Below are positions 6,836 through 62,752 of a DNA stretch of 64,000 bases, piece by piece; the stretch's first letter is position 1, and the number at the start of each line of letters is the position of its first letter. The DNA comes from a virus. Its lineage: Duplodnaviria; Caudoviricetes. The notes under the pieces are model-generated. The model did not search any database. It was not told the origin of the DNA and was given only the letters and a program-made list of their open reading frames with translations. The DNA is taken from the IMG/VR virus record IMGVR_UViG_2844225640_000006, positions 8,495 to 72,494 of that record; one strand, written 5' to 3'. The position numbers and the translations under genes were made by a program.

Positions 6836-6862
6836 AAAAGCCCGGCGCTAAGGCCGGGCTTG
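6836..6862 (-). terminator. Intrinsic terminator-like hairpin
   Basis: AAGCCCGGC..GCCGGGCTTTT; nearly the same stem as at 2790. Confidence 0.55.
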
Positions 6863-6884
6863 GTGAGGTTCGGTCAGTTAACGA

Positions 6885-9170
6885 TTACGGATACGACACA
6901 CTCGTCGCCGCAGAGACGAGGAAGATCGCCAGCGGTGACGTGGTGCTGTAAGTCGTCTTGCGCTTCCACGACGTTACTGCCGTACCGAGCGTCCAGGTGA
7001 AGACTCGACGGATCGAGCCATCGGCCTGCACTTCGTCGGTGACAGCCGTGGCGGCGGTTTCAGTACCGTAGCCGGACCCGGTCAGGATCGAACAGGACAG
7101 GTCATGGTTGACCTCGTCGTAATGCTCGAGCACGAGGATCTCGATGATCTCCGTCACCGGCCCCGGCGCCACCCGTTCCTTCGTGATGTGCACGCCATTC
7201 GTCCGAGGACGAGATACCGTGACATTCGACTGTCCGAGGTTGATGCCCGGCATAAGCTCGGTGGTGCCAAGGAGGACCATGCGAGCGTTGATGTTGGCAG
7301 GAAGATTGAACAGAGGCGAGGCACCGCTCGCAACCGCTTCAATAGTATGCCAGACCGAACCAACCTGAACTTCGTACGAGATCTCGCAGCCATCCGGCAC
7401 GACCTGCTTGGTGAGAAGGTCGATACCGCAGATGCCACCCGAGAGATTCCACGCCGTCAGGTTGACAGTCACACGAGGAGCGCTGAACTGTGCGACGAGG
7501 ATCTCGAAGCAAGCGTCCAGAGAAATGCTACCCTGCGACCAGAGGCCGTCCGTCGATACGAAGAACGATCCCTGCGCGTACTTGTTGTTTTCCGCCACCG
7601 CCAGCCAGTGGTTGCCGGAGGTGATGACGAACCAGCCGTAACGCTTGCCGCCTTCAAGGAAGACCGGTTCGATTGCGAACTTGGTTGCAATCGGGTGTAT
7701 CTTCAGGTCAGCCGCAGCGACTGTTGTAACAGCGAGACAGCTTGCGTAGTTCGGTGCGCCGTTCTCAAACAGCTCGCAGAGAGCCATGCGCACGTCACCG
7801 CCGCCAGCGTCAACGCGGCTGAAGTAAAGGTTCACACCCGTCACCCAACCGGAGCGAGGCATCATGAAGGTGTTGCCTGCCACCTGTCCGGTGTAGGACG
7901 CCTGCACGATTGTTGCCGCCCAATACGGCTCTTCGTAGGTGTCGTAGAAGATCTGGCGAGCGCGCATGATGTAATGCGCAGGGCCACCGGCATCCTGAGT
8001 GAACTCGACGTTATAGGCCGTGCCGTCATTCTGATAGAAGATGCCCTTCGTCTGGTCGTACCGCCCGGTGCCCCACCAAGCTGCGTTGGTGCAGACGAGA
8101 AACGGGTCGCCATAGCGGATGCGAGTCTTCGAGATCGTCTTCAGCGTGTACTCGATGGTCTGAGAACCACCGTTTGCAAGGGCGTGTTCCGTCGACTTCG
8201 ACGTGATCGTGATCAGGTTATTCTCGGTATAGCGTGGCAGAACCATGCCGCCCGTCGATACCTGAATGCTGGTGTCGGACGGTGTGAGAAGGCCGAGGGT
8301 GATCTGCGCCGAGTTATCGTCAGCAAAGCGGATACCTTCTTCCACCTTCGTCACTGACTGCAGGTGTTCGAGATCGCTATCCGTTTCGTCGAGGAAGTAA
8401 TCCGACTTCGAGTAGGACTTACCTTCCGGCATCCCGGTCATTTCCACCACGCGAGCGAGCTGCTCGAGGAGGTAGATCTGCATCTGGCGTGACAGCTTAT
8501 CAGAGTTGGATGCGACCAGCTTGGACACGTCGGTCTTGAGACCTTCGACGACCGGCTGCGTTTCATCCATCCAGCCTTCTAGCACCTGCACGCGGGAGTC
8601 CAGCGACCGCATCGTGGTGATGCGATTGTCCGTGCTCTGCTCGACCAGTACGATTTCCGTCGAGGAGAGTGTCACCCAGGCGATGACCGTATTGGCACTA
8701 TCGACCACCGGCTTCGACGGGGAGGGTGCCTGATCGCCGAGCTGGATTGCCACGTTGACCTTGCGCCATTCAACGGTCGCTGTCGGCTGCGGGTCCACTT
8801 GAGGCGGGTAGACCGAACCATTGACCACGAAATCGCGAGGCTCGGTCCCGTCATTCGCCGTCTGTGCCTGAAGCAGGATCGCAACAATGCGGCGGTTGCC
8901 GGAGGTCGGCATGTGCGCCAGGAGATTGAGAACCGTCGCGTTGTCGCCGCCCGTGAAGAGCTTCCCGTCCTTGAAAAGGATGACAGGTGTTTCAACCGTG
9001 ACCTGCGTCGTTGCCGTCTTGGCGACCGTTGCGCCTGAGTAGCAAGCATCGAGTGCGCCGCTGACTGCTGCCGAGATCAAGGTATCCATGGCATCGCGAG
9101 GGAACTCAGCGAGGTTCTCAAAATCGCTGAGGGTCGCGTTCTGGTTGGCGGTAAAGCGGGCAATCTTCAT
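6885..9170 (-). CDS. Baseplate/tail structural protein
   Basis: 761-aa beta-rich ORF between gpI and the fibre; call by position. Confidence 0.6.
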   Translation of the reverse strand: MKIARFTANQNATLSDFENLAEFPRDAMDTLISAAVSGALDACYSGATVAKTATTQVTVETPVILFKDGKLFTGGDNATVLNLLAHMPTSGNRRIVAILLQAQTANDGTEPRDFVVNGSVYPPQVDPQPTATVEWRKVNVAIQLGDQAPSPSKPVVDSANTVIAWVTLSSTEIVLVEQSTDNRITTMRSLDSRVQVLEGWMDETQPVVEGLKTDVSKLVASNSDKLSRQMQIYLLEQLARVVEMTGMPEGKSYSKSDYFLDETDSDLEHLQSVTKVEEGIRFADDNSAQITLGLLTPSDTSIQVSTGGMVLPRYTENNLITITSKSTEHALANGGSQTIEYTLKTISKTRIRYGDPFLVCTNAAWWGTGRYDQTKGIFYQNDGTAYNVEFTQDAGGPAHYIMRARQIFYDTYEEPYWAATIVQASYTGQVAGNTFMMPRSGWVTGVNLYFSRVDAGGGDVRMALCELFENGAPNYASCLAVTTVAAADLKIHPIATKFAIEPVFLEGGKRYGWFVITSGNHWLAVAENNKYAQGSFFVSTDGLWSQGSISLDACFEILVAQFSAPRVTVNLTAWNLSGGICGIDLLTKQVVPDGCEISYEVQVGSVWHTIEAVASGASPLFNLPANINARMVLLGTTELMPGINLGQSNVTVSRPRTNGVHITKERVAPGPVTEIIEILVLEHYDEVNHDLSCSILTGSGYGTETAATAVTDEVQADGSIRRVFTWTLGTAVTSWKRKTTYSTTSPLAIFLVSAATSVSYP

Positions 9171-21985: not shown

Positions 21986-22473
21986 GGCCACGGGGTCTAA
22001 CCCATTGATATGTAATGACATTTGGCGGCGTCTCACGTGGGCGCGCATGAGGCGGGCACGTGGGCGCATGGGTAGGCGCGTGGGTGGCGTGCACGTGGGT
22101 GCGGGCATAGCGCGCCATGAGCGGGCAGGCATGGGCAGGCGCTGGCATGGCGTAGGGTAGGGCAGACGCCTTCCGGCTTCGCCTTCGCTTCGCTCTGCTA
22201 GTCCTGTTAGCGTATGTGGAATGTGGCTATGTGCACCATGCGCGGCGTCCGGCGTCTGGGCCGTACCTTATCGCCGCTGGCAATAATGGCTTATGGGCAT
22301 TTGTTTGACTCGCCGATTTGAGTCCACGCAAGGGGAAAAGTGAAAAGCCTATCCGCTTTGCACCATAGCCAGCGCCCGCCACCTATCGGCCGCATGTGCG
22401 GTTGACAGCCTATGACGCGGCCTTCCTGCCACCATGGCCCGGCCTGTTTTTTGGGAGATTTGGCGGAAATGTA

Positions 22474-27117: not shown

Positions 27118-27326
27118 TAGCCGAGTTCTCAACCTATCTGCGCATCTTTGACGTGACCACGTTTGTCTCCGCCGCACAAGAACGAGCCAGAAACGAAGGC
27201 GTCGACGAGAATGACGTCAAAGAAATGTACAACGAGTCCAACTTGGACAATTGCCTCATCATGTTGCTCGATCCATCCACGCTTCCCGGTTGCGAAATCC
27301 TCGAAAGTAACGCCGAGATTGCCTGA
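27114..27326 (+). CDS. Hypothetical protein
   Basis: AGGAG SD, coupled TTG start. Confidence 0.55.
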   Translation: MIAEFSTYLRIFDVTTFVSAAQERARNEGVDENDVKEMYNESNLDNCLIMLLDPSTLPGCEILESNAEIA

Positions 27327-27362
27327 CACCCCGCCAACTATGGCACCACAACGGAGACTCCC

Positions 27363-28268
27363 GTGAATATCATGACCAATCCTCAATCCGTTTCCTCGGT
27401 CCTCGCCAGCCGCGCGATGATTGTTTCCCTGTCCATCTCGCAATGGTCAGGCCGTCGCCTTGACCGGCAGATCACCGACGAGGTCAACCAGAACCACGGC
27501 GCTGCCGCCGACGCTGGCCGCTACAACAAATTGCTCCTCCCGAAGGAAGCATTGGCGGAAATCGTATCCATCGTCGGCGAAACCCGCTCGGACTTCCTCA
27601 AACGCACCTTGCCTTGGATGGACAACGGTAGCCGCATCATGGCAAGCGATGCATATTTGCAGCATATGTCATGGGTGCGCGGTCAGGTCGCCAAGTTCGA
27701 CCGGGCTGTCGACAAATTCCTCGCTGACTACCCGCAATATGTGGCCGATGCCCGTGTCCGCCTGAACGGCATGTTCAAGGACGACGACTACCCCGACGCT
27801 CAAATCTTGCGCAGCAAGTTCGGCGTTGCCTGCAAGGTTCTTCCGGTCCCCACCTCGGAAGACTTCCGCGTGGACATGAGCCAGGCACAAGCTGACCGCA
27901 TCCGCGAGGAGATCGAACAGCAAGTCTCCGACGCCACCACGGAAGCGGTGCGTGATGTTTACCGCCGCGTGGCAGACGTCACAGGACGAATGGTCGAAAG
28001 GCTCAACGCCTACAAGCCAGCCGGTCGTCCGGGTGACAAGACGGAAGGCGTGTTTCGCGACAGCCTTGTCGAGAATGTGCGCGATCTGATTAGCGTCTTG
28101 CCCGCGCTCAACATCATTGGCGACCGCGAGCTTTCCGCCATGGTCGAACGGCTCAAGCCATTGGCCGAGCACAATGCGTCGACCCTGCGCGATAGGCCGG
28201 AGATCCGCCGCGACGTAGCCGATGAGGCTCAGAAAATCCTCGACAGCGTCTCCGGCTTCTTGGCCTGA
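27363..28268 (+). CDS. Helical protein, DUF3150-like
   Basis: LSISQWSG, KLLLPKEAL, TLPW, YPD motifs; same operon as MoxR/vWA genes. Confidence 0.55.
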   Translation: MNIMTNPQSVSSVLASRAMIVSLSISQWSGRRLDRQITDEVNQNHGAAADAGRYNKLLLPKEALAEIVSIVGETRSDFLKRTLPWMDNGSRIMASDAYLQHMSWVRGQVAKFDRAVDKFLADYPQYVADARVRLNGMFKDDDYPDAQILRSKFGVACKVLPVPTSEDFRVDMSQAQADRIREEIEQQVSDATTEAVRDVYRRVADVTGRMVERLNAYKPAGRPGDKTEGVFRDSLVENVRDLISVLPALNIIGDRELSAMVERLKPLAEHNASTLRDRPEIRRDVADEAQKILDSVSGFLA

Positions 28269-28280
28269 GACAAATAGAAT

Positions 28281-28494
28281 TGCAGGAGCGAGGCGCCCGC
28301 TCCTGCATTTGGCGTGGCATGGCTTGGTAGGGCGCGGCGGGGCAGCGCATGGCAGGCATGGCATGGCGCGGCGTGGTATGGCTCGGCTTGGCGCGGCAGG
28401 CTAGGCGCGGCTAGGCGAGGCGCGGCGAGGCAAGGCGCGGCGAGGCCGGGCAGGCTCCCACCCAAAAGCCGCCGCTCTCTGAAAAGGGAGCGGC
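28281..28494 (+). ncRNA. GGY-NN pentamer array 1 (three units: 8, 8, 10 pentamers) with flanking hairpins; candidate guide RNA
   Basis: 5-nt periodic GGC/GGT+NN from 28311 to 28457; GGCA delimiters at 28351, 28395, 28449; 10-bp 5' stem 28281-28307; GAAA-loop stem 28471-28494. Confidence 0.75.
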
Positions 28495-28581
28495 ACCTCA
28501 AAGTTCTCCTCTTCACCGGGGAGCCTTTTGAGGTGTCAGAACGGCACTACGAACCCAATGCAATCATGCATCCAAGGAAAC

Positions 28582-29265
28582 ATGTTCATGGCAAAAGCAG
28601 CAACCAAAGTCGAAACCGGAATCACTCTTCCGAAGCTCAACATCCAGCTCATGGAAGTGGTGGTCATCGGCGACTCCCCGCTCATCGTCCACGCTTGGTC
28701 TGAAAAGGCCAAGAAGGAAATGCTGGACAAGCAGTTGAAGGTAGCGAAGGGCGCTCGTGAAGCGAAAGACCCTGTCGCAGACTTCCAGAACACTATGTAT
28801 CGCTTCGAAGACGGCGGTCACGGCTTCCCGTCCATCGCCTTCAAGGCGGCAGCTGTCACCGCTGGCACATCCGTTGCGGGACTCACCAAGATCGCAGCGA
28901 GACAGGCGTTTCATATGCTCGGCGAGAACGCCGACATTGCCGGTGCTTTTGATGGGGCGCAGTCCCGCACGAACCTCGTGCGAATCCTCGGCTCCGAACC
29001 CCAGATGCGTGAAGACATGGTCAGGGTCGGAATGGGCACGGCAGACATCCGCTACCGTGCGGAATACCCGGATTGGCACGCAAAACTGCTCGTTCGCTAC
29101 AATGCAAACGTGCTGTCCGAAGCACAGATTCTCAACCTCATCAACGTGGCAGGCTTTGCTGTCGGCGTCGGCGAATGGCGCCCCGAAAAGGACGGCAATT
29201 ACGGCATGTACCATGTCGCCACCGAGAAGGAACTGAAGGCGCTTGGTGTGCAATCACCGGGCTGA
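28582..29265 (+). CDS. Stand-alone Cas7/RAMP-like protein
   Basis: VVVIGDSPLIVH, FPSIAFKAA, and C-terminal Gly-rich loop GVGEWRPEKDGNYG in RAMP order; AAGGA SD. Confidence 0.7.
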   Translation: MFMAKAATKVETGITLPKLNIQLMEVVVIGDSPLIVHAWSEKAKKEMLDKQLKVAKGAREAKDPVADFQNTMYRFEDGGHGFPSIAFKAAAVTAGTSVAGLTKIAARQAFHMLGENADIAGAFDGAQSRTNLVRILGSEPQMREDMVRVGMGTADIRYRAEYPDWHAKLLVRYNANVLSEAQILNLINVAGFAVGVGEWRPEKDGNYGMYHVATEKELKALGVQSPG

Positions 29266-29271
29266 AACAAT

Positions 29272-29422
29272 ACAGGGTCGCGTTGCCATCGTGGCCCTGT
29301 TTAGGCGAGGTATGGCAGGCAAGGCAGGGCTTGGCTGTGCGAGGCAGGGCGCGGCGGGGCAAGGCCGGGCAGGCTCACCCACCAGCGGCCAAGGGGCAGC
29401 ATTCAACCGCCCCATTTCTTTT
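29272..29422 (+). ncRNA. GGY-NN pentamer array 2 (one 10-pentamer unit); candidate guide RNA
   Basis: Periodic 29304-29376; GGCA at 29314 and 29368; 5' stem 29272-29300; 3' GGGGC/GCCCC stem plus T run. Confidence 0.75.
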
Positions 29423-29448
29423 CAACAACCAACAGAGGAGTAGCTGCA

Positions 29449-29994
29449 ATGGTAAAGATTGCATCTTACGGCTTCGCAGAGGGTTCCCGTTTCCAGAAAG
29501 GCGCGAATACTTCCGCCCCCGAACTGGTCGGTGAACACCTTGAGACTATCCGCAAGGCGAAAGACGGTAAGCTCACACCCGACGACGTGGTGGCCGACGC
29601 TCGTAATCCCAACTCTCCGCTGCATTCGTTCTTTGAGTGGGACGATTCAGCAGCAGCTCATGAGCACCGGCTTCGGCAGGCTCGCCAGCTGATCCGCACG
29701 ATCGTTGTGCGCTATCAGGAAGTCGAGTCCAAGGAACCGATACGGGCCTATGTTAATGTCCGCTCACCCAACAGTGACAATGGGAATGAACCGGACAGCG
29801 ATGAACCACGTCAGTATTACACCGACACGATCGAAGCGCTCTCTGCCCCTGACATGCGAAGGGCCGTGCTTCTCCGGGCAAAGTCCGAGCTTGACGCTTG
29901 GCGCAAGCGATATGCCGACCTCGAAGAATTGTCCATCGTCGTGCGGACCATCACCAAGATGTCCGAAAAAGTCGGCGAACTGGCTGATGCTTGA
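29449..29994 (+). CDS. Partner protein of the RAMP-like locus (phage hypothetical)
   Basis: LTPDDVVADARNPNSPLHSFFEWDD..A..HRL.QARQLI motif; GAGGAG SD; flanked by arrays 2 and 3. Confidence 0.75.
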   Translation: MVKIASYGFAEGSRFQKGANTSAPELVGEHLETIRKAKDGKLTPDDVVADARNPNSPLHSFFEWDDSAAAHEHRLRQARQLIRTIVVRYQEVESKEPIRAYVNVRSPNSDNGNEPDSDEPRQYYTDTIEALSAPDMRRAVLLRAKSELDAWRKRYADLEELSIVVRTITKMSEKVGELADA

Positions 29995-30010
29995 ACCCAA
30001 ACAAATAATT

Positions 30011-30118
30011 GGCGTGGTGGGGCAGGCAGGGCTTGGCATGGCAGGGCTTGGCTTGGCCCGGTGCGTCTCGTTTCGGCAGGCAAACACGGGGATTCGTTCG
30101 CGGCTCCCCTTTTCTTTT
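30011..30118 (+). ncRNA. GGY-NN pentamer array 3 (one 10-pentamer unit) plus terminator; candidate guide RNA
   Basis: Periodic 30011-30083; GGCA at 30021 and 30075; GGGGA..TCCCC-TTTTCTTTT terminator 30088-30118. Confidence 0.75.
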
Positions 30119-30147
30119 CAGCAATCATGCAAACTAAGGAGACGAGC

Positions 30148-30561
30148 ATGAGTGTGCGCAATCTTCCATCGCCTGTTCGATTCCTCCTCATCCCGGTACT
30201 CGGCGACATCAAAGAGGAACGGTTTACGGTTGCGCCCGCCACGGTGGTTCCCCGTGCCAAACTATTGGAGCATGTGCGGACGTTCTTCGACGAACCAATC
30301 GAGCGCGTGAACGTGCTCTATCGGGGCGAGTACCGCGATATGTTCGTCGGCGAGACGTCGGCCATCAACGGTCGCCACATCCGCAATATCCGGGCGACCG
30401 AAGTCTACCGGGCAAATGCGCTGGAAAATCACTGGCGTCTCAATTCACCCGACCCGACAAAGGCGAAGCCTATCGATTTGTCGTGGACACTCGACCCTGA
30501 AATTCTACCGGCCATCTCTGGTCCGGCGGTTCTGTTCCCAGATTATCAAGTGTGGGAATAA
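30148..30561 (+). CDS. Hypothetical protein
   Basis: AAGGAG SD, ANYA hairpin. Confidence 0.65.
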   Translation: MSVRNLPSPVRFLLIPVLGDIKEERFTVAPATVVPRAKLLEHVRTFFDEPIERVNVLYRGEYRDMFVGETSAINGRHIRNIRATEVYRANALENHWRLNSPDPTKAKPIDLSWTLDPEILPAISGPAVLFPDYQVWE

Positions 30562-30578
30562 CCCCGAAAGGAAACCCC

Positions 30579-30758
30579 ATGTTCATCGTAGCGTGGTCCG
30601 TCAATCACGGCGGCAACAACATCGAAGATCATTGGATCGTCGCTGAGACACAGAAACAGGCAGACGCCGAAGCTGCAAAGCTGCAAAAGATCGACAACCT
30701 GCACTGTTGGGCCGTCTCTGAAATCAAAGCAGGCTCCGAGCCTCACTGGCTCTCGTAA
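30579..30758 (+). CDS. Hypothetical protein
   Basis: AAGGA SD. Confidence 0.55.
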   Translation: MFIVAWSVNHGGNNIEDHWIVAETQKQADAEAAKLQKIDNLHCWAVSEIKAGSEPHWLS

Positions 30759-30800
30759 CTCTCAACATCCCGCCAAGCATGGCAAACACGGAGAACTTCT

Positions 30801-31802
30801 ATGAACCTCAAGTCCGCAACGACTCTGCTCAACCACTTCATTGACGCCGACATTCCGGCATTCATGTGGGGCCCTCCCGGCGTCGGCAAGTCCGCTTCGC
30901 TGCATCAGATTGTGACCGAGCGTAAATGGGGAATGGTGGACTTCCGCGCTTCGACCCGTGACTCGGTGGCGTTGATGGGCCTGCCTGATATTTCCGGCGA
31001 GACCACCCGCTGGAAAGTGCCGGACGAATTTCCGCAGGCCGAACGTGACGGCGAGGAAGGCATCCTGTTTCTCGACGAACTGAACGCCGCGCCACCTTCG
31101 ATGATGGCGGCAATGTTTGGCCTGGTCCTTGACCGCAAGGTCGGCGACTACGTGCTGCCCAAGGGCTGGCGCGTAGTTGCGGCTGGCAATCGTCAGGCTG
31201 ACCGTGCTGCGGCACAGCGTATGCCTACCGCTCTCGCTAACCGCTTCGCTCACATCGACGTCGATGCAGATACGAGCGCCGGACATGACAATGTCCACGT
31301 CGAATACTTCAATCAGATCGGCGTTGATCCGCAGCTCATTGCCTTCCTTCGGTTCCGTCCGGCACTGATCCATTCGATGCCGAAGAATGATGAGCGTGCG
31401 TTCCCAACGCCCCGTTCGTGGGAACAGGCGGCGAAGATCCTGAATCTTCCGACGGCACTCCGCCTGCAGGGTGTATCCGCTATCGTCGGTGAAGGCGCTG
31501 CGGCTGAACTGGAAGGATTCCTTCGTGTTTACCAGAACTTGCCTTCGCTAGATCTGGTACTCGCCAATCCGAACAGCGCGCCTATCCCGGAAGACCCGGC
31601 GGCTCGCTTTGCAATCTCCGCTGGCCTTGCCCGTAAGGTTGATGAGCGGTCTTTCGACAACGGCATGGCTTACATGCAGCGCTTGCCTCGTGAGTTCGAG
31701 ATTATGATGTGCGTCGATGCGGTGCGTCGTGAACCGAAGCTCAGCCATACGCAGACGTTCACTTCGTGGGCCATGAGAAACCAAGACGTCACTCTAGGCT
31801 GA
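30801..31802 (+). CDS. MoxR-like AAA+ ATPase
   Basis: GPPGVGKS, LFLDE, AAGN, ALANRF, PTPRSW. Confidence 0.9.
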   Translation: MNLKSATTLLNHFIDADIPAFMWGPPGVGKSASLHQIVTERKWGMVDFRASTRDSVALMGLPDISGETTRWKVPDEFPQAERDGEEGILFLDELNAAPPSMMAAMFGLVLDRKVGDYVLPKGWRVVAAGNRQADRAAAQRMPTALANRFAHIDVDADTSAGHDNVHVEYFNQIGVDPQLIAFLRFRPALIHSMPKNDERAFPTPRSWEQAAKILNLPTALRLQGVSAIVGEGAAAELEGFLRVYQNLPSLDLVLANPNSAPIPEDPAARFAISAGLARKVDERSFDNGMAYMQRLPREFEIMMCVDAVRREPKLSHTQTFTSWAMRNQDVTLG

Positions 31803-31806
31803 TGCC

Positions 31807-32139
31807 ATGGCAGAAATCCGCGCCATCTTCGGCCCTTACAAGACGGAAGAACAGACCTCGCGCATCACTTGGTTCTTCTCCGGCGTCCGAGCGGACGGGG
31901 AGTTCACGGCGTGGTCTCTCCGTTTTCAATTCGATACGCGGCGCTATACGTGCCGCGTCATCAAGAACAAGCAGGCAGCAAAGTATGCCGCGTCCATAAG
32001 TCATAAAGACTTGTTCAGCCTCCCCGAAGCAGCGCGGTCGGAAGTCAGTTGTGGCCGCGTGACGGACATGCTCAAGGCCAAGCTTTCACCAGAGCAAATC
32101 GCTCGGGCTACGGCGCTGGCTATACAATACAGGAGGTGA
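31807..32139 (+). CDS. Hypothetical protein, paralog A
   Basis: Shares IR..FGP and LK.KLSPE.IARATAL with the next gene. Confidence 0.65.
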   Translation: MAEIRAIFGPYKTEEQTSRITWFFSGVRADGEFTAWSLRFQFDTRRYTCRVIKNKQAAKYAASISHKDLFSLPEAARSEVSCGRVTDMLKAKLSPEQIARATALAIQYRR

Positions 32140-32519
32140 TGATGGCCATCATTCGCAGGGTCTTCGGTCCCTTCCACCCTGAACACATCCATCCGGGCAC
32201 GCAGGCTGAGGAGCTGCGATGGCATTTCATCGGCATCAAGGACGACAAGACGACAGCACACTGGACATTGGTCTTTGACCCTCGCAAGCGAACTTATCGG
32301 GTCAACAACAATACCAGCAGCGGCGGCTTGATTGGCCGCAGCCGAAAGGCATTGATCGCCCAAAAGATAGATCCGGGTGTCAATTGTGAGACTGCTCACC
32401 CCGACGCCTGGCTCGACGACTCTCCAGTCATGGAGGGCACCATCACCAGCATCCTGAAATCGAAACTCTCACCAGAGGATATTGCCAGGGCGACCGCGCT
32501 GGTAATCGCAAGGAGATGA
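32139..32519 (+). CDS. Hypothetical protein, paralog B
   Basis: AGGAGG SD; motifs shared with paralog A. Confidence 0.65.
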   Translation: MMAIIRRVFGPFHPEHIHPGTQAEELRWHFIGIKDDKTTAHWTLVFDPRKRTYRVNNNTSSGGLIGRSRKALIAQKIDPGVNCETAHPDAWLDDSPVMEGTITSILKSKLSPEDIARATALVIARR

Positions 32520-32522
32520 ATC

Positions 32523-32816
32523 GTGCTGACTACCGACGTCATCATGAACAACTTCAGGAAGAGCGACCACGCTGACAATCGCTGGAGCTTTGCTCCGCTT
32601 CCCGAAACCGTTCTCAACACGCACCTTTACTACCTTTCGTTCATCAAGCAGGAGCGGCGGTTCATGCTGTCTCGAAAGCAGATCGTGCCCTTCATCCCGA
32701 TCGAAGATGACGAACTCCTGCAGGCGTTCAAGGCGACACTGCATGCAGACGAAGTGGCTGCGTGCATGAGATCCACTCTCGATCAGGGCGTCGACCCGGA
32801 TGACATTCCATTCTGA
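32523..32816 (+). CDS. Hypothetical protein ending DDIPF
   Basis: AGGAG SD; SSB-like C-terminal DDIPF. Confidence 0.55.
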   Translation: MLTTDVIMNNFRKSDHADNRWSFAPLPETVLNTHLYYLSFIKQERRFMLSRKQIVPFIPIEDDELLQAFKATLHADEVAACMRSTLDQGVDPDDIPF

Positions 32817-32831
32817 TACACGGAGGCCAAC

Positions 32832-33989
32832 ATGAAAACCGAAGACAAGATCCTCGCCGCACAGACGTCGCTACTTTGGGACCAGCCATTCTTTGGCGTC
32901 CTCATGCTCCAGCTTAAAAAGGTGCGGGTGGATGACCCGAAGAAGGTCGATACGATGGCGACAGACGGCCGTCATCTCTTCTACCACCCGCCCTTCGTCG
33001 ATGAGCTGAAGAAGGACGAGCTGGTTTTCGTGCTGGCCCATGAGGTCATGCACAACGCCCTGGAGCATCACATCCGACGCCAGTCCCGTAAGCCCGGCCG
33101 CTGGAACGATGCCTGCGACTACGCCATTAACGGCGAGCTGGTCGAATGCAAGGTCGGCAAGATGCCAGAGCGCGGCCTGCTCGAGGCGCGCTTCACCGGT
33201 CTTTCAGCCGAGGAGATCTACCGTATCCTCGACGACGAGAACAACGGCGACGACTCCGCTGAAGGGCAGGGCGATACCGGTGGTTGCGGTGGAACGATGG
33301 ATGGCTGCGCACAGCACGACGAGGCAGCCAAGGCCGAGCTGCGTGCCGAGATGCAAACGCAGATCAGGCAGGCTGCCATGACCGCCAAGGCTGCGCAGGC
33401 TGGTAAACTTCCGGCTGGCGTGCAGCGTATCATCGACGAGCTGCTCATGCCGAAGGTCGACTGGCGGGCTGTTCTCCGCCGCTTCATCGACGAGTCCAGC
33501 ACCCGTGATTTCTCATGGTCGAGGCCGAACCGTCGCCTGCTTCCGCTTGGTCTGGTTACTCCGGGCACAGTTTCGGATGGCGTCAGCCATATCGTGATCG
33601 CGGTTGACACATCTGGCTCGATCGACGAGCCCACGCTCAATGCCTTTGCTGCCGAGGTGCGGGGAGCATTCGAGGAAGGCTCTGTCGACAAGATCGACGT
33701 GGTCTACTGCGATGCAGCCATCAACCACACAGAGCAATTCGAAATGGGCGACGAGCTGTTCATCCGTGCGGTAGGCGGGGGCGGCACTCGCTTCTCGCCT
33801 GTCTTCGAATGGGTGACCGAGAAAGCAGCCGACACCAAGCTGGTGATCTACCTAACAGACTTGCTCTGCAATGACTTCGGCGACGAGCCGCACTGCCCGG
33901 TTATCTGGGCGCACTATGGAACGAAGAGCCAATTTCAGCAGCTCAGCCCCAACGTTCCGTGGGGTGAGTGCGTACACATCGAGCCTTAG
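32832..33989 (+). CDS. DUF2201-type metallopeptidase-vWA protein
   Basis: TMATDG, HEVMH, N.ACD.AIN, MIDAS DTSGS, GGGGTRF, YLTD. Confidence 0.9.
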   Translation: MKTEDKILAAQTSLLWDQPFFGVLMLQLKKVRVDDPKKVDTMATDGRHLFYHPPFVDELKKDELVFVLAHEVMHNALEHHIRRQSRKPGRWNDACDYAINGELVECKVGKMPERGLLEARFTGLSAEEIYRILDDENNGDDSAEGQGDTGGCGGTMDGCAQHDEAAKAELRAEMQTQIRQAAMTAKAAQAGKLPAGVQRIIDELLMPKVDWRAVLRRFIDESSTRDFSWSRPNRRLLPLGLVTPGTVSDGVSHIVIAVDTSGSIDEPTLNAFAAEVRGAFEEGSVDKIDVVYCDAAINHTEQFEMGDELFIRAVGGGGTRFSPVFEWVTEKAADTKLVIYLTDLLCNDFGDEPHCPVIWAHYGTKSQFQQLSPNVPWGECVHIEP

Positions 33990-33998
33990 GAGGAATAA

Positions 33999-34634
33999 TT
34001 GCCCATCTTACTCGACCTGACTGGCCAGCAGTTTGGCCGGTTGATTGCTATAGCCAGAGATCCAACCGCACGCCCTACACGCTGGTCATGCAGATGTGAG
34101 TGCGGCAACACGAAAGTCGCTGCCACGAACGACCTCAGGCAGGGGAAAACGAAATCCTGCGGCTGCTTGAGAGTTGAAGTGACCGGGGGAAAGAACCGCA
34201 CCCACGGTCTGCGACAGCACCCCCTCTACGATGTATGGCAAAGCATTAAAGACAGGTGCCTAAATCCTAACAATCCTCAGTTCAAAGATTATGGCGGGAG
34301 AGGAATAAAAATCTGCGATGAATGGGCGCACGATGGCGCTGCGTTCATCGCATGGGCAGAAGCCAACGGCTACCGCGCCGGCCTCATCATCGATCGCGAG
34401 AATAACAATTGGGGATACAGCCCCGAGAATTGCCGGTTCGTTACGCGGAAGACCAGCAACCGCAACAAGCGGAACACCAACTACATCGACACTCACCTCG
34501 GTCGCATGATGCTGGCTGAAGCGGTCGAGATCTCCGGCTTGGGCAGGGACACCATCCGACGCCGCTTAAAGTTGGGATGGCCCGCATCAAAGATCCTTCA
34601 GCCCGCCCGAGCGATGAAGAAGAGCAGCAAATAA
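33999..34634 (+). CDS. HNH-type homing endonuclease-like protein
   Basis: DLTGQQFGRL, C.CECG, SCGC, YGGRGI.IC.EW, IDR.NN..GYSPENCR. Confidence 0.8.
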   Translation: MPILLDLTGQQFGRLIAIARDPTARPTRWSCRCECGNTKVAATNDLRQGKTKSCGCLRVEVTGGKNRTHGLRQHPLYDVWQSIKDRCLNPNNPQFKDYGGRGIKICDEWAHDGAAFIAWAEANGYRAGLIIDRENNNWGYSPENCRFVTRKTSNRNKRNTNYIDTHLGRMMLAEAVEISGLGRDTIRRRLKLGWPASKILQPARAMKKSSK

Positions 34635-37491: not shown

Positions 37492-37583
37492 CCACCCTCC
37501 GTCACACCTCAACACCCACTGCGATGGCGCTCCTCTCGGGGCGCCATATCGGGGCGTGTTGCCCTTTTTCAACGGAGAACAAT

Positions 37584-38549
37584 ATGAAAAAGTTTAGCAT
37601 CATCTTCATCGCATCCCTCGCTCTTTCGACCTCGTCTGCCCTTGCTTCCGATGGCTGCACCGGCAGTGCCACGCTTATGAAGTGGCTTCAGGGTTGCCGC
37701 GATCTTCCGAGCAGCGTGCGGGTTATCGACCACTCCGGTGGCGACCGCACCCCAGGCGCTAAGAGCTCCTCGGGTGGTAACGGTGCAGCCAGTGGCGGAG
37801 AGTCCAGCGCCAATGCTGGCGGCAATTCCGGCGGAACCAGCGGCACTACCAACAACGGCAACTCCGGCGGCTCCAGCAATGCTGGCAACTCTGGCGGCGG
37901 CAGCAACGGCGGTTCGAACTCCGGCAGCACTGGCGGCGGCAGCAACGGCGGTTCGAACTCCGGCAGCACTGGCGGCTCCACGGGTGGAAACACTGGCGGC
38001 TCCGGCAATTCCGGTGGCGATACTGGTGGTAACTCCGGCGGTGATACCGGTGGGAACAACGGTGGAAACACTGGCGGGGATACCGGCGGTAACACCGGAG
38101 GCGGCAGCGACAACGGCGGCGGCGACACCGGTGGCAATACCGGCGGAGGTGACAACGGCGGTGGCGGTGACACTGGCGGGAACAACGGCGGTGATAATGG
38201 CGGTGGCGACACTGGCGGCGGTGACACTGGCGGGAACAACGGTGGCGACAACGGAGGGGATAATGGTGGCGACACCGGCTCCGGCGGTAACAACGGCGGC
38301 CACAATGGCGGAGACCACACCGGCAACGGCCCAGGTAATGGCAATGGCAACGGCGGCAACCACGGCAATGGTGGCGGAAACAACAACGGCTCCGGTCCAG
38401 GTTCGGGTAACGGCGGCCACAACAACGGCAATGGCAACGGTAACGGTAACGGCCATGGCAACAGTGGTGGCAATGGTCACGGCAATGGCGGTGGCGGCAA
38501 TGGAAACGGAGGCGGTAATGGCGGTGGCGGAAAGGGTGGCCGCCACTAA
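37584..38549 (+). CDS. Secreted Gly/Asn/Asp/Thr-rich low-complexity protein
   Basis: Signal peptide MKKFSIIFIASLALSTSSALA, two Cys, then GG(D/N)(T/N) repeats; GGAG SD. Confidence 0.7.
   Translation: MKKFSIIFIASLALSTSSALASDGCTGSATLMKWLQGCRDLPSSVRVIDHSGGDRTPGAKSSSGGNGAASGGESSANAGGNSGGTSGTTNNGNSGGSSNAGNSGGGSNGGSNSGSTGGGSNGGSNSGSTGGSTGGNTGGSGNSGGDTGGNSGGDTGGNNGGNTGGDTGGNTGGGSDNGGGDTGGNTGGGDNGGGGDTGGNNGGDNGGGDTGGGDTGGNNGGDNGGDNGGDTGSGGNNGGHNGGDHTGNGPGNGNGNGGNHGNGGGNNNGSGPGSGNGGHNNGNGNGNGNGHGNSGGNGHGNGGGGNGNGGGNGGGGKGGRH
37891..37968. repeat. 39-bp tandem duplication (2 copies)
   Basis: CTGGCGGCGGCAGCAACGGCGGTTCGAACTCCGGCAGCA twice. Confidence 0.85.
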
Positions 38550-38630
38550 CCCATAATCCACACACAACAAGCGGGGCACTTCGGTGCCCCGTCCATCATC
38601 CCGCCAAACATGGCAACCACGGAGATTGAA

Positions 38631-40208
38631 GTGAGCACACTCGTACCCACTGCAACGATCGAACAACTCTGCGCTTATCGCGATGAAGCAATTCGTTTGT
38701 ACGAAGAAGCATTTGAGAAAATAGCCGAAGCATCGACCGCCGTCACGAAGGCAGGCTTGATGTGGGAGGCCGCTTCTCCCGGTAAGCCGAGCCGCCATTA
38801 CGACGGCGCCGAGGAAGTCAAGGAGTTCTTCCGGGCCGTCAACCTGCCTGACCGTGACCGCTATCTGCGCACCGCGCGCCGTCTCATCGACGTTACCGTA
38901 TGGACCCACGTCATCGACATCGCTGGCATCGAACAGCTCATGGACATGCAGGCCAAGAACGAGCTGCGCGACCAGATGAAGTATGTCCCGGAGCGCACCG
39001 GCCGCAATGGTGAGATCATCAATCAGGATGAGATCGACCGCATGCTGCCGCCCGTCACCCCGGAGAACATCTACGCCACGCTCGAGCGATTCCAAGGTGA
39101 TGCCGAGATGATCTTTCGGCGCGGCATCGTCAATGTCTTCACGAAGTTGGACCGTCGCTTCCGTTCGCACGACGGATTCAAGGTCGGCTCGCGCATGATC
39201 ATCGATTACCTGCTGCGCAGCAGCACGCATCTGTATGGTGATCGCGCAGATATGCTGACCGATGTAGAGCGAACGTTCCTCGTGCTCGACGGCAAGTCAG
39301 CGAAGGCCAGCTATGCGGGCATCGTCGAAAAGATCAACCGCGAGAACCCAGGGAAATGGAATCAAGCAGTGCAGTTTGAGGTGGTTTCCGAATACTTCAA
39401 GGTCCGTATCTTCAAGAACGGCAACGCCCATCTCTGGTTCAGCCGCAAGGATCTGGTGAAGAAGGTCAATGAGATCCTGGCCGACCACTACGGCGAGGTG
39501 ATCGGCGACGGGATGACGAAGGAGGAAGATCCTCTCAAGAACATCAAGACCACACCGGCTCGCTACTTCGGATTCTACCCCACGTCAGACGCGACTGCCG
39601 AAAAGGTTATCAGCCATGTACGCCTGCTCCAGCGAAAGGACGAGCCCCAGATACGCATCCTTGAGCCGTCGGCCGGGACCGGCAACCTTGCCCGACGCTG
39701 CCTTAGCACCCCGGCTGCCCTCGATAAATGGTCCGGCGGCCGCGACCGCTACATAGATCAGTACCGCATGGACAATGTGGTCGACTGTGTAGAGGTGCAG
39801 CCGCACCTAGCTCACCAACTCGAGGCACAGGGCGTCTACGGCCGCGTAGTCTGCGCCGATTTCCTGTCGCTCCGGCCGGATTCGTCTCGCCTCTATGACA
39901 GAGTAGTCATGAACCCGCCCTTCGACCGGGAACGGGACATCGACCACGTCGTGCATGCCATCCAGTTCCTCAAGCCGGACGGGCAGCTCGTCGCCATCAT
40001 GTCGGCCGGGACTGAGTTCCGGCAGACCGCCAAGTCCATAGCCTTCCGCAAGATGATGGAAGACATGGGCGCAGAATGGACTGATCTACCGCCCAATTCC
40101 TTCTCGGACGTGGGCACAAACGTGAACACCGGGTTCATCTCGGTCTGGAAGAACGGACGTAAGAAAACCGGCCGCTACGACAGACCGACTTGGCCGAAGG
40201 TGGGATAA
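38631..40208 (+). CDS. DUF4942-like domain fused to an adenine DNA methyltransferase
   Basis: FKNGNAH, FYPT, LEPSAGTG, MNPPF; GGAG SD favours GTG at 38631. Confidence 0.85.
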   Translation: MSTLVPTATIEQLCAYRDEAIRLYEEAFEKIAEASTAVTKAGLMWEAASPGKPSRHYDGAEEVKEFFRAVNLPDRDRYLRTARRLIDVTVWTHVIDIAGIEQLMDMQAKNELRDQMKYVPERTGRNGEIINQDEIDRMLPPVTPENIYATLERFQGDAEMIFRRGIVNVFTKLDRRFRSHDGFKVGSRMIIDYLLRSSTHLYGDRADMLTDVERTFLVLDGKSAKASYAGIVEKINRENPGKWNQAVQFEVVSEYFKVRIFKNGNAHLWFSRKDLVKKVNEILADHYGEVIGDGMTKEEDPLKNIKTTPARYFGFYPTSDATAEKVISHVRLLQRKDEPQIRILEPSAGTGNLARRCLSTPAALDKWSGGRDRYIDQYRMDNVVDCVEVQPHLAHQLEAQGVYGRVVCADFLSLRPDSSRLYDRVVMNPPFDRERDIDHVVHAIQFLKPDGQLVAIMSAGTEFRQTAKSIAFRKMMEDMGAEWTDLPPNSFSDVGTNVNTGFISVWKNGRKKTGRYDRPTWPKVG

Positions 40209-55816: not shown

Positions 55817-56547
55817 AGATCCGCTGCATCGATTTCGAAACCACAGGGAAGATTGAAGAGCGGGAGAAGGGGAAGCCAGTTGGCATCTGCGAGTTCGGGT
55901 TCGCCGACGTCGACGGCAGCACCGGCGCTGTAAGCAAGCCAGTGTCTTCGCTCATCAACTGCGGAATCGCCATGCCGCCCGAAGCGCGCGCCATCCACCA
56001 TATTTCAGACGAGGATGTTTCTGAATCACCAACGCCGGACTTCGCGTTCAAGTCTTTGATGGACGGCATGGAACCGGGCGACGTCTTCTGCGCACACAAC
56101 GCAGCGTTTGAGCAGGCGATCTTCACCGGCAGCACGTTCCCCTGGATCTGCACCATGCAGTCAGCAAAGCATCTGTGGGAAGACGCACCGGGCTACAGCA
56201 ACCAGACGCTGCGCTACTGGCTTGGAGTGGATGCCGATTTCGAGTGGCCTCCTCTGGCGATGCCGCCACACCGCGCCGGGCCCGACGCCTACGTTACGGC
56301 TCACATCCTGTCACGGATGGTCAAGGACAAGCATCCATCGGTCCTCATTCAGCTGACCAATACACCGGTTCTCCTGAAAACCGTGGGCTTCACAAAGGAT
56401 CATTACGGCAAGCTCTGGTCCGACATGGACCGAGGTTTCCTCGAGTGGTGCGTCGACCCTCGCAGGGACAACCTCAGCCCCGAGATACGGCACACCGCAC
56501 GTCACTGGCTCAACAAATTGACGATGTCCGGCACTCCATTCGCATAG
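55813..56547 (+). CDS. DEDDh 3'-5' exonuclease (ExoX-like)
   Basis: IDFETTG, AIHHI, AHNAAFE, HRA.PDAY. Confidence 0.88.
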   Translation: MKIRCIDFETTGKIEEREKGKPVGICEFGFADVDGSTGAVSKPVSSLINCGIAMPPEARAIHHISDEDVSESPTPDFAFKSLMDGMEPGDVFCAHNAAFEQAIFTGSTFPWICTMQSAKHLWEDAPGYSNQTLRYWLGVDADFEWPPLAMPPHRAGPDAYVTAHILSRMVKDKHPSVLIQLTNTPVLLKTVGFTKDHYGKLWSDMDRGFLEWCVDPRRDNLSPEIRHTARHWLNKLTMSGTPFA

Positions 56548-61300: not shown

Positions 61301-61525
61301 ATGAAAACATCAAATTCAGCAACAGCGAATGAAAATCATGGCGGCTCTTCGGGCCGCCGCATCCGTCCGAGTGAGCACGCTCTTCGCATTGCCCTGCGCA
61401 CAGCCAAGGCTGAAGGCATGGTTGTGGATAAGCTGTGCGTGACGGGTGGGTATATCGAAATCCATTTCGGAGGCGTTGAGGTCGAGTCGTCCGATGGAAA
61501 TCATGGAGACCTCGATAAATGGTAG
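61301..61525 (+). CDS. Small protein upstream of the integrase (excisionase candidate)
   Basis: Overlaps the integrase start; function inferred from position. Confidence 0.4.
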   Translation: MKTSNSATANENHGGSSGRRIRPSEHALRIALRTAKAEGMVVDKLCVTGGYIEIHFGGVEVESSDGNHGDLDKW

Positions 61526-62601
61526 AGGCTGCTATGAAAGTAGAGTTCCCCGGTCTTCTGAAGGAAGCCATGGCGTCCGGGCATATCCGGTATCGCGTCC
61601 GCCCGAAAGGCGACAAGACAAAGCGCATACGAATATTCTGCGAGCCGGGTGACGACGACTTTCAACGGCAGTATCTGATCGCTCGCTCAGGGGACCAGCC
61701 CAAGCCACTGCAGAAAGCTTCCGAAGTCGCGAAGCCGAAGTCAATTGGATGGCTGGTCTCCAGCTATATGGAATATCTCGAAGCGAGGGTGGTCGCTGGA
61801 ACTTCCAGCGGCAAGACCCTGAAAAAGAAACGCAATCTTCTCAACCGTCTGCTGACGAATCCTGATCGCGTGATGCTAATTCCGCAGGAAAAGTTATTCG
61901 AGATGCAGGACAAGATGGGATCGACGCCAGCCCAGGCCGACGCTTTCATTGAAGCCGTCGGTGTCATGTATGATTGGGCGAAGAAGCGGAAGCTCGTAAG
62001 CAGCAACCCGGCAAGGGGCATCGATAAGGTGTACGTCAAGGGAGACGGGGCTACTCCGTGGAAGGCGGCAGATGTGAAGGCATTCTTCGCCAAGCACAAG
62101 CCGGGCAGCAAGGCGCACGTTGCCATGTCGGTCCTACTGTGGACCGGTTGTCGCGTCGAGGATCTCACCGTTCTCGGCCGGAAGAACGAATGCGTCATCG
62201 AGGGCGTGGAGGCCGTCCGTTGGCAGCCGAGCAAGAAGGGATCTTCCGAAGTGACCGTTCCGCTTCTGCCTGCCCTGAAGACGGCCACCCGCGCGCCTAC
62301 GGTTCAAGGCGGCACCTATGTTCTTGGTCGTGGCGGCAAGCCCTTTGCAAGCGGTGACAGTATGTCGGCGATGTTTAAGCGGTGGTGCAAGGATGCCGAC
62401 CTGCCGACGCTGTCAGCTCACGGCGTTCGCAAGGGACTCGCTGAACTGTTGGCCGAGCAGGGCTGCAGCCAATATGAGATCATGGCTATCCTCGGCCATT
62501 CCGAAGCAAAAACATCCGAGGTTTATACCCGGAGAGTCGAGCGTTGGAAGCTGGCTCTTGGCGCCATGGAACGAGTAGATGTGTCCCACGCATGGTCTTG
62601 A
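61519..62601 (+). CDS. int: Tyrosine integrase
   Basis: TGCR, K, HGVRK, LGH, Y catalytic set; adjacent to tRNA. Confidence 0.92.
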   Translation: MVEAAMKVEFPGLLKEAMASGHIRYRVRPKGDKTKRIRIFCEPGDDDFQRQYLIARSGDQPKPLQKASEVAKPKSIGWLVSSYMEYLEARVVAGTSSGKTLKKKRNLLNRLLTNPDRVMLIPQEKLFEMQDKMGSTPAQADAFIEAVGVMYDWAKKRKLVSSNPARGIDKVYVKGDGATPWKAADVKAFFAKHKPGSKAHVAMSVLLWTGCRVEDLTVLGRKNECVIEGVEAVRWQPSKKGSSEVTVPLLPALKTATRAPTVQGGTYVLGRGGKPFASGDSMSAMFKRWCKDADLPTLSAHGVRKGLAELLAEQGCSQYEIMAILGHSEAKTSEVYTRRVERWKLALGAMERVDVSHAWS

Positions 62602-62667: not shown

Positions 62668-62752
62668 TGGTGCGGTCGAGAAGACTCGAACTTCCACGGG
62701 TTGCCCCACAGCGACCTCAACGCTGCGCGTCTACCAATTCCGCCACGACCGC
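62668..62752 (-). tRNA. tRNA-Leu (anticodon GAG), 85 nt, CCA encoded; probable att site
   Basis: GCGGTCGTGGCGGAATTGGTAGACGCG-CAGCG-TTGAGGT-CGCTG, long variable arm, GTTCGAG, CGACCGCACCA. Confidence 0.97.

Follow-up and report, generated by a model that had tools for sequence, protein, structure and literature searches.

A probable VIPR locus with staggered guide arrays in an integrated alphaproteobacterial phage

Organization of the locus

The stretch of DNA analyzed here, called the window below, is 64,000 nucleotides (nt) long and corresponds to positions 8,495 to 72,494 of the IMG/VR virus record IMGVR_UViG_2844225640_000006 (Duplodnaviria; Caudoviricetes). At positions 28281–30119, on the + strand, the window contains a compact locus with two genes, three arrays of pentanucleotide repeats of the form GGYNN, and a series of hairpins, in the order hairpin, array 1, vipr gene, hairpin, array 2, a gene for a protein of 181 amino acids (aa), array 3, and a terminator-like hairpin. 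The evidence presented here indicates that an integrated alphaproteobacterial phage very probably carries here a locus of the VIPR (Viral Interference Programmable Repeat) kind, consisting of vipr, a putative accessory gene, and three same-strand arrays that would specify five guide RNAs (vrRNAs). VIPR was reported in April 2026 (10.64898/2026.04.26.720920).

All features of the locus are on the + strand. The first hairpin (28281–28307, followed by UUU; −19.2 kcal/mol, z-score −3.4) lies directly after the stop codon of an upstream gene encoding a 301-aa protein, and its stem is terminator-like when read on the − strand. Array 1 (28311–28453) begins 3 nt later and is composed of three tracts of 9, 9, and 11 units with 1-nt overlaps at 28355 and 28399. 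These tracts correspond to the guide modules vr1a (28311–28355; 9 GGYNN units, one of which is degenerate, CGCAT, with GGCAG at the end), vr1b (28355–28399; 9 units ending in GGCAG, with a first G that is the last G of vr1a), and vr1c (28399–28453; 11 units, the last two being GGCCG GGCAG). The 3′ flank of array 1 (28454–28537) starts with GCTCCCACCC and continues into strong hairpins at 28474–28491 and 28492–28537. The region 28449–28545 folds with an energy of −47.8 kcal/mol (z-score −5.0), and none of 200 shuffled sequences was as stable. This flank may serve as a tail, or as a processing or stability element.

The vipr gene (28582–29265) encodes a 227-aa, single-domain RAMP (Cas7-like) protein, and an alternative start at the ATG at 28588 is possible. 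A second hairpin followed by UUU (29272–29300; −18.9 kcal/mol, z-score −4.6) separates vipr from array 2 (29304–29372), in which a 3-unit lead-in precedes a tract of 11 units. The lead-in, GGCGA GGTAT GGCAG (29304–29318), creates the first GGCA/GGC junction of array 2; the tract, vr2b (29318–29372), contains one degenerate unit (TGCGA) and has GGCCG GGCAG as its last two units. The 3′ flank of array 2 (29373–29423) contains GCTCACCCACC, a hairpin at 29393–29413, and the U-run AUUUCUUUUC, and is terminator-like. It is followed by the putative accessory (vap-like) gene (29449–29994), whose 181-aa product has an N-terminal domain and a long C-terminal helix. Array 3 (30011–30079) again consists of a 3-unit lead-in, GGCGT GGTGG GGCAG (30011–30025), and an 11-unit tract, vr3b (30025–30079), in which units 9 and 10 are degenerate (GTCTC and GTTTC) and GGCAG stands at the end. 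An intrinsic-terminator-like hairpin at 30088–30109, followed by UUUUCUUUUC, closes the locus (30088–30119).

The arrays are interrupted by 4-nt GGCA units that move the register by one base. The last G of each GGCAG-ended tract is the first G of the next one, which accounts for the 1-nt overlap of the tracts. On this reading there are five full guides, of 9, 9, 11, 11, and 11 units, and two 3-unit lead-ins. Open reading frames (ORFs) that cross the arrays, such as 28314–28703, are taken as artefacts, as a period of 5 is not a multiple of 3.

An earlier note on this DNA had described the alternation of hairpins, three non-coding arrays, and genes for 227 and 181 aa. The coordinates of this architecture were confirmed, and dinucleotide-preserving shuffles of the window yielded no tract of score at least 5 in any of 50 trials. 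The arrays that the note described as 5-nt periodic GGY-NN repeats are not uniform runs, given the register shifts introduced by the GGCA units. Tandem Repeats Finder detected periods of 5, 10, 15, or 20 in the window at these three arrays alone. A register-aware scan of both strands found six tracts of score at least 5, with five of the six inside the locus. The sixth comprises five GGYNN units on the + strand (6852–6876) and overlaps the terminator stem of a − strand gene (6885–9170); it was considered as a solo guide and set aside as a chance match that coincides with the stem of a terminator hairpin. A further match, of 4 units, is at 56263–56282 on the − strand.

As a separate observation, the flanks of arrays 1 and 2 (28454–28470 and 29373–29389) start alike, with about 15 nt in common, and this motif was found in none of 90 other loci. 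The shared start of the flanks and the identical last two units (GGCCG GGCAG) suggest that one array end was perhaps duplicated from the other.

The Vipr protein

According to the parts of the original report drawn on here, a VIPR system consists of a phage-borne minimal RAMP protein, Vipr, usually accompanied by one accessory gene, vap (10.64898/2026.04.26.720920). By sequence homology, the 227-aa protein of the present locus is a Vipr. It belongs to no family in Pfam, NCBIfam, or PADLOC, and among the PHROGs it matches phrog_4652, of unknown function, with E = 6.2e-32. In a search of the Protein Data Bank (PDB) with phmmer, the only chain matched at E ≤ 10 was 36pp_D, described as "SUSP1 Vipr protein" (E = 0.0014), over a span of 59 residues that includes a loop rich in glycine (the G-loop; GVGEWRPE here and GVGDWRPR in 36pp_D). 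A profile built from 81 relatives matched the same chain with E = 1.2e-13, aligning profile positions 22–201 of 206 with chain residues 3–189 of 202; the match ranked second, to a clathrin light chain (E = 0.35), is regarded as noise. The match to phage VIPR (GGY/NN) systems that the earlier note had suggested is borne out, in that VIPR is in print and the 227-aa protein is homologous in sequence to SUSP1 Vipr, whose structure is solved.

The family is large. Among 8000 candidates scored, 7544 proteins were found at E ≤ 0.001; among representatives of clusters at 50% identity, 3535 reached E ≤ 0.001 and 430 of these reached E ≤ 1e-30.

The fold prediction points in the same direction as the sequence. 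An AlphaFold2 model of the protein (predicted local distance difference test score, pLDDT, 94.5; predicted template modelling score, pTM, 0.88) has the RAMP fold in its minimal, single-domain form, built from an RRM core, a loop rich in glycine, and a thumb. Comparison of the model with the PDB by Foldseek gave 52 matches at E ≤ 0.001, headed by 8do6_E (1.1e-5), and all 34 of those listed are effector complexes, or their subunits, of CRISPR (clustered regularly interspaced short palindromic repeats) systems, namely Csm, Cmr, Cas7-11, and type VII. The closest solved folds are Csm3, Cmr4, and Cas7-11, with a sequence identity to Csm3 of 8–10%. The Cas7/RAMP-like character that had been proposed for this protein is therefore supported by a predicted Cas7/Csm3-like fold.

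The residues of SUSP1 Vipr reported to grip the GGY bases are H17, R138, D177, W178, and R179 (10.64898/2026.04.26.720927). In both the phmmer and the profile alignments, their counterparts here are H37, R159, E198, W199, and R200, the only difference being a conservative Asp-to-Glu change from D177 to E198. Across the 81 relatives, the first column holds H in 69, the second R in all 81, the third E in 70 and D in 11, the fourth W in 57, and the fifth R in all 81.

The partner protein

Of 365 candidate relatives of the 181-aa protein, 196 reach E ≤ 0.001, and the protein matches phrog_15946. No Pfam family was found for it above threshold, and sequence searches of the PDB, NCBIfam, and PADLOC returned none; rows for SopD (E 0.08–0.2) were considered and dismissed as noise. 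In its model (pLDDT 89.6), an alpha/beta domain at the N-terminus is combined with a C-terminal helix of 47 residues (134–180). The modelled N-terminal domain bears a weak winged-helix resemblance. Foldseek found nothing in the PDB at E ≤ 0.001 for this model. Its weak neighbours are the iteron-binding initiator RepE54 (Foldseek E 0.3–1) and RepA/replication-initiator clusters with template modelling scores of 0.39–0.42. In BFVD, three matches were found at E ≤ 0.001, none of them functionally named, and the Atlas yielded unnamed viral clusters alone.

The original report, in the portion used here, describes some Vap proteins as predicted winged-helix-like DNA binders (10.64898/2026.04.26.720920). 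A winged-helix-like partner would agree, weakly, with these predictions, and the 181-aa protein could be matched to no named vap.

Related loci

The related loci collected for comparison numbered 88 and comprised five genomes, taken one per species; three named phages, chosen among the 34 phage records that matched; and, out of 418 IMG/VR matches, the best 80. The five genomes represent five phyla and come from Rhizobium, Chloracidobacterium, a Spartobacteria metagenome-assembled genome (MAG), a Lachnospiraceae MAG, and Aeromicrobium.

These loci show that arrays and partner accompany vipr across phyla. GGYNN tracts of score at least 5 were present on the vipr strand in 72 of the 88 loci and on the opposite strand in none, with 220 tracts on the one strand against 0 on the other; four of the 16 loci that lack tracts end less than 250 nt from the genes. 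A homologue of the 181-aa protein adjoins vipr in 83 of the 88. Homologues of the upstream 301-aa gene, which has a weak DUF3150 match, and of the downstream 137-aa gene (30148–30561) were found in none of the 88 related loci, and these two genes are therefore not counted as parts of the system.

The relatives' arrays are built like those of the window. Across 1784 units, which belong to 197 distinct tracts, the five positions carry 1.88 (G), 1.52 (G), 1.05 (Y), 0.08 (N), and 0.02 (N) bits of information, where the GGY values are inflated by a scan that selects for GGY and the NN values are unaffected. All 16 NN dinucleotides occur among these units, so that the expectation of GGY-NN arrays with different NN at homologous loci was borne out. 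Tracts in the relatives are mostly 9–11 units long; GGCAG ends 91 of the 197 distinct tracts, and GC comes after 104 of them. GTY units, as seen in vr3b, are frequent in the relatives' arrays. Lead-ins of one to three units, comparable to those of arrays 2 and 3, are found in five relatives (L015, L022, L012, L088, and L001), and a terminator hairpin with CTTTTCTTTT likewise closes the arrays of four (L012, L088, L064, and L015).

The array regions tend to change faster than the genes. Eleven close pairs of loci were compared, and in six of them neither the genes nor the array region differ. In four of the five non-identical pairs the array region is the more diverged, with identities for genes and array region of 92.6/59.6%, 90.5/58.7%, 87.1/48.1%, and 89/77%; the fifth pair is reversed (genes 92%, array region 97%). 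In one further pair, the genes are identical and the array region is 91.6% identical.

The commonest order in the relatives is vipr, partner, arrays. None of the 88 has arrays at all three of the positions that they occupy in the window, namely upstream of vipr, between vipr and the partner gene, and downstream of the latter.

The same Vipr clade (28–43% identity) is found in Mycobacterium and Gordonia phages, for example Brocalys (gp45–gp46) and Ecliptus (gp19–gp20), and in Cyanophage Cy-LDV1. In all three of the records examined, vipr has a homologue of the 181-aa partner beside it and GGY-NN arrays on its strand, upstream in Brocalys, between the genes in Ecliptus, and both between and downstream in Cy-LDV1. 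These phages differ from the present case in having Actinobacteria and Cyanobacteria as hosts, and their genes are labelled simply as hypothetical.

Several side observations concern individual relatives. First, Brocalys (NC_031262.1, 32741–33957) and Ecliptus (genes 19–20) are cultivable phages that carry the Vipr–partner pair with GGYNN arrays, and their genes are annotated merely as hypothetical. Second, the annotated start of Brocalys gp45 (locus position 2333) lies inside the last upstream tract (2325–2344), and similarity to Vipr begins at 2501; since the start overlaps the array and the similarity begins later, the annotated start may be too early. Third, two IMG/VR contigs carry unusually many tracts, with 20 (L067, 4236–5361) and 16 (L068, 4236–5140) abutting GGYNN tracts after vipr, over about 0.9–1.1 kb. 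The 181-aa partner homologue was not detected in either of these contigs.

Comparison with published systems

Compared to published VIPR systems, the locus shares several features. First, it encodes a small RAMP protein that is homologous to SUSP1 Vipr and keeps the GGY-contact residues. Second, vrRNAs are described as 9–16 YNNGG repeats in which NN pairs with double-stranded DNA (dsDNA) and every third target base is skipped (10.64898/2026.04.26.720920), and the GGY/NN guides of 9–11 units found here fall inside that range. Third, it is a two-gene proviral locus with arrays upstream and downstream of the genes and with no CRISPR array or cas genes. Every defining VIPR feature that could be tested, as far as the published descriptions set these out, is found at this locus, which also has a staggered layout. 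In addition, 99 VIPR-like clusters of period 5 have been recovered in another published survey, according to the part of it used here (10.64898/2026.10.21.760802).

Seven VIPR types (I–VII) have been distinguished, together with "staggered arrays", in which vrRNAs come from positions overlapping by 1 nt (10.64898/2026.04.26.720920). The characterized type II examples are those of Escherichia phage SUSP1 and a Pseudomonas fulva prophage, and the hallmark of type II is given as a repeat tract with a conserved structured 3′ tail for each vrRNA and the accessory gene Vap1 (10.64898/2026.04.26.720920). Unlike in these examples, the guides of the present locus abut with a 1-nt overlap and have no structured tail between tracts, and the Vipr itself is distant from that of SUSP1 (pairwise E 0.0014 over 59 residues; a tblastn search of the phage collection missed SUSP1). 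As the tracts abut with no conserved tail for each, the locus does not have the SUSP1 type II form. It resembles instead the published staggered vrRNA arrays, in which the end of one vrRNA is the start of the next (fig. S18 legend, 10.64898/2026.04.26.720920); this likeness is drawn from the wording of the legend, with which the frequent GGCAG ends and following GC of the relatives' tracts also agree.

Compared to CRISPR class 1 systems, with Cas7 backbones such as Csm3, Cmr4, and type VII Cas7, the differences are more fundamental. Identity is 8–10%, and the period is 5 nt rather than 6. The guide information resides in dinucleotides inside the repeats, not in a spacer. Cas10, Cas5, and Cas6 partners and adaptation genes are lacking here, and published VIPR systems, in the descriptions used, target dsDNA. 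The features of a type III CRISPR-Cas system were not found, in that Rfam shows a single tRNA in the window and no CRISPR repeat, no Cas family surfaced in Pfam scans of 53 submitted window ORFs, and PADLOC gave no match to the 227-aa or 181-aa protein. To the extent of these tests, the locus is free of CRISPR repeats and cas1/2, as the earlier note had proposed.

Search for targets and alternative explanations

A number of results weigh against the assignment of the locus to a working VIPR system, and most of them concern targets. Outside the target searches, W199 is substituted in 24 of the 81 relatives, the apparent strength of GGY in the related arrays owes something to the selectivity of the scan, and no sigma-70-like promoter was found in 27300–30900. 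Parts of the stretch are contained in 14 public sequencing runs (each with a share of at most 0.25), and the four examined are all metagenome contigs and silent on RNA.

Targets were sought on both strands with the published NN?NN… rule and a shuffled-guide null, as given in the part of that report used here (10.64898/2026.10.15.759431). The five guides, compared with the 72-kb provirus at 0–3 skips, gave a best skip-1 match of 16/22, no better than permuted guides; the arrays themselves were recovered at 3 skips, as a control, and at no other skip. Guides of the relatives (132 distinct tracts from the 88 loci) did no better against this provirus, with a skip-1 maximum of 0.875 compared to 0.889 for permuted guides. 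When exact 1-nt-skip patterns were sought in IMG/VR, vr1a and vr1c had one match each and vr1b, vr2b, and vr3b had none. The vr1c match (10 units) lies in a reverse-transcriptase-like ORF on a contig with a G+C fraction of 0.48, with the skipped base off the wobble position; the vr1a match (9 units) lies on a contig with a G+C fraction of 0.40, with the skipped base at the wobble position. Neither was accepted as a target. Both were read as chance on the grounds that their low-G+C hosts differ from the provirus in base composition and that about 0.1 to a few random matches are expected per scan, a rough estimate that is based on 18–20 specified bases and a collection of size not known.

Searches of more closely related material gave the same outcome. 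With up to two mismatches, vr1c matched none of 301 genomes of one family, and a backwards control matched one. With up to three mismatches, no match was found for vr1c in five, or for vr2b in 20, whole related virus records. In a scan of 26 related proviruses (1.43 Mb, arrays masked) at skip 1 and at least 0.85 identity, 16 of 138 guides had a match, as did 21 of 276 permuted guides; at skips of 0, 2, and 3, the number was 6 of 138 each. The excess at skip 1 is common to the permuted guides and is thus attributed to codon periodicity rather than to targeting. No convincing natural target was found in the collections searched.

These negative results leave some room for an explanation in which the machinery is that of VIPR and its natural role is to regulate the host chromosome or the phage's own life cycle (lysogeny control, decoy sites) rather than to attack rivals. 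A rival-phage target was absent from every search made, the self-scan covered the 72-kb provirus alone, and a report of October 2026 states, in the part used here, that vrRNAs can direct VIPR to host decoy sites (10.64898/2026.10.15.759431). Nevertheless, such a role is considered improbable, as no self-target in the provirus exceeded permuted controls, and the natural targets of the clades studied so far are described as mostly satellites and prophages (10.64898/2026.04.26.720920). The collections searched may also lack the rival elements of this host.

It is far less probable still that the arrays act as DNA, as iteron-like sites for the 181-aa winged-helix-like protein in replication or partition, with the RAMP protein unrelated to them. 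The weak structural neighbours of the partner, which include RepE54, RepA, and replication-initiator clusters, would fit such a role, although none is significant. Sites read in dsDNA would not need to be co-oriented with vipr, as the tracts are in 220 cases against 0. The GGY-reading residues of the solved Vipr are kept here, and four relatives (L067, L068, L070, and L080) have arrays though no partner homologue was found in them. Moreover, published VIPR systems are reported to produce and bind the RNAs (10.64898/2026.04.26.720920). A CRISPR type III-like remnant, whether degenerate or orphan, with a solo Cas7 gene beside chance GC-rich simple repeats, would account for nearest solved folds that are Csm3, Cmr4, and Cas7-11, and can practically be dismissed in view of the missing Rfam CRISPR repeat in the window and cas families in the submitted ORFs, the low identity to Csm3 set against the profile match to a solved Vipr, the co-occurrence of arrays in related loci, and the array-free shuffles.

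Prophage context

The IMG/VR provirus record to which the window belongs spans 72,494 bases, at an estimated completeness of 89%. Its genes include those for baseplate, tail, and capsid proteins, the large terminase, a DnaB-like helicase, a primase, a beta sliding clamp, and an integrase. The integrase gene (61519–62601) adjoins a tRNA-Leu(GAG) gene (62668–62752), which is the sole Rfam family in the window, and a patatin-like gene (63056–64000 region) lies beyond it. The tRNA-Leu region is probably the attachment site, with the side of the patatin-like gene as the host flank. Among 301 genomes sampled from the order of Rhizobium leucaenae, the best match to the flank beyond the tRNA gene has 74% identity.

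Other features of the provirus were recorded in passing. A MoxR-like AAA ATPase (phrog_1297) and a 385-aa phrog_1314 protein are encoded at 30801–33989, 0.7 kb downstream of the locus, and an HNH endonuclease gene (33999–34634) comes after them. Dense tandem repeats with periods of 12–54 nt, rich in GGCGGC/AAC, occupy 37800–38530 within a − strand ORF of 553 aa (37569–39230); this ORF matches no Pfam family, and its product has the look of a structural protein that is repetitive and rich in glycine. At 22034–22089, between the packaging and early genes, a 20-nt repeat (consensus CACGTGGGCGCATGAGGCAGG) is present in about 2.4 copies.

Proposed mechanism and implications

VIPR is described as silencing the transcription of rival phages and satellites (10.64898/2026.04.26.720920). 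The cryo-electron microscopy structure of the SUSP1 system (PDB 36pp), in the part of its description used here, has one protomer per repeat with NN presented (10.64898/2026.04.26.720927). By homology with SUSP1, the arrays of the present locus would be transcribed and processed into five vrRNAs, and each Vipr protomer would bind one repeat. The GGY bases would be sequestered through H37, R159, and the G-loop residues E198-W199-R200, leaving the NN dinucleotides exposed. The resulting filament would read dsDNA as NNxNNx…, with one base skipped per unit, if the same rule holds in this clade, and the target sites would be 26 or 32 bp long. Binding would silence transcription at the site, which most likely lies in a rival phage or some other mobile element. 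The suggestion in the earlier note that one subunit binds each GGY and presents NN is in line with what is reported for the SUSP1 system and would carry over to this one by homology.

The layout invites a more speculative proposal in five parts, which, taken together, is rather unlikely to hold. First, guides in this clade may be delimited by the register-breaking 4-nt GGCA unit instead of a structured tail. Second, if so, a frameshift in the repeat code itself may determine the length of the filament (9–11 protomers) and perhaps the cutting of the RNA. Third, the lead-ins of one to three units may serve purely to make the first junction. Fourth, the three arrays, each situated between its own hairpins, may differ in when they are expressed, for instance in the lysogen as opposed to lytic growth. 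Fifth, the conserved 181-aa protein, with a winged-helix-like domain and a coiled coil, may be an accessory factor of a role yet to be described.

The locus is of a kind already known, as VIPR was published in 2026, and it leaves the picture of VIPR unchanged. It adds a well-delimited locus from an alphaproteobacterial prophage to a class of RNA-guided DNA binders whose first description, in 2026, drew on enterobacterial and Pseudomonas examples. The family to which it belongs is very large and reaches cultivable Mycobacterium and Gordonia phages in which the genes are still called hypothetical. The locus provides a compact test case of how staggered guides are delimited and processed, with five natural guides at hand for reporter assays.

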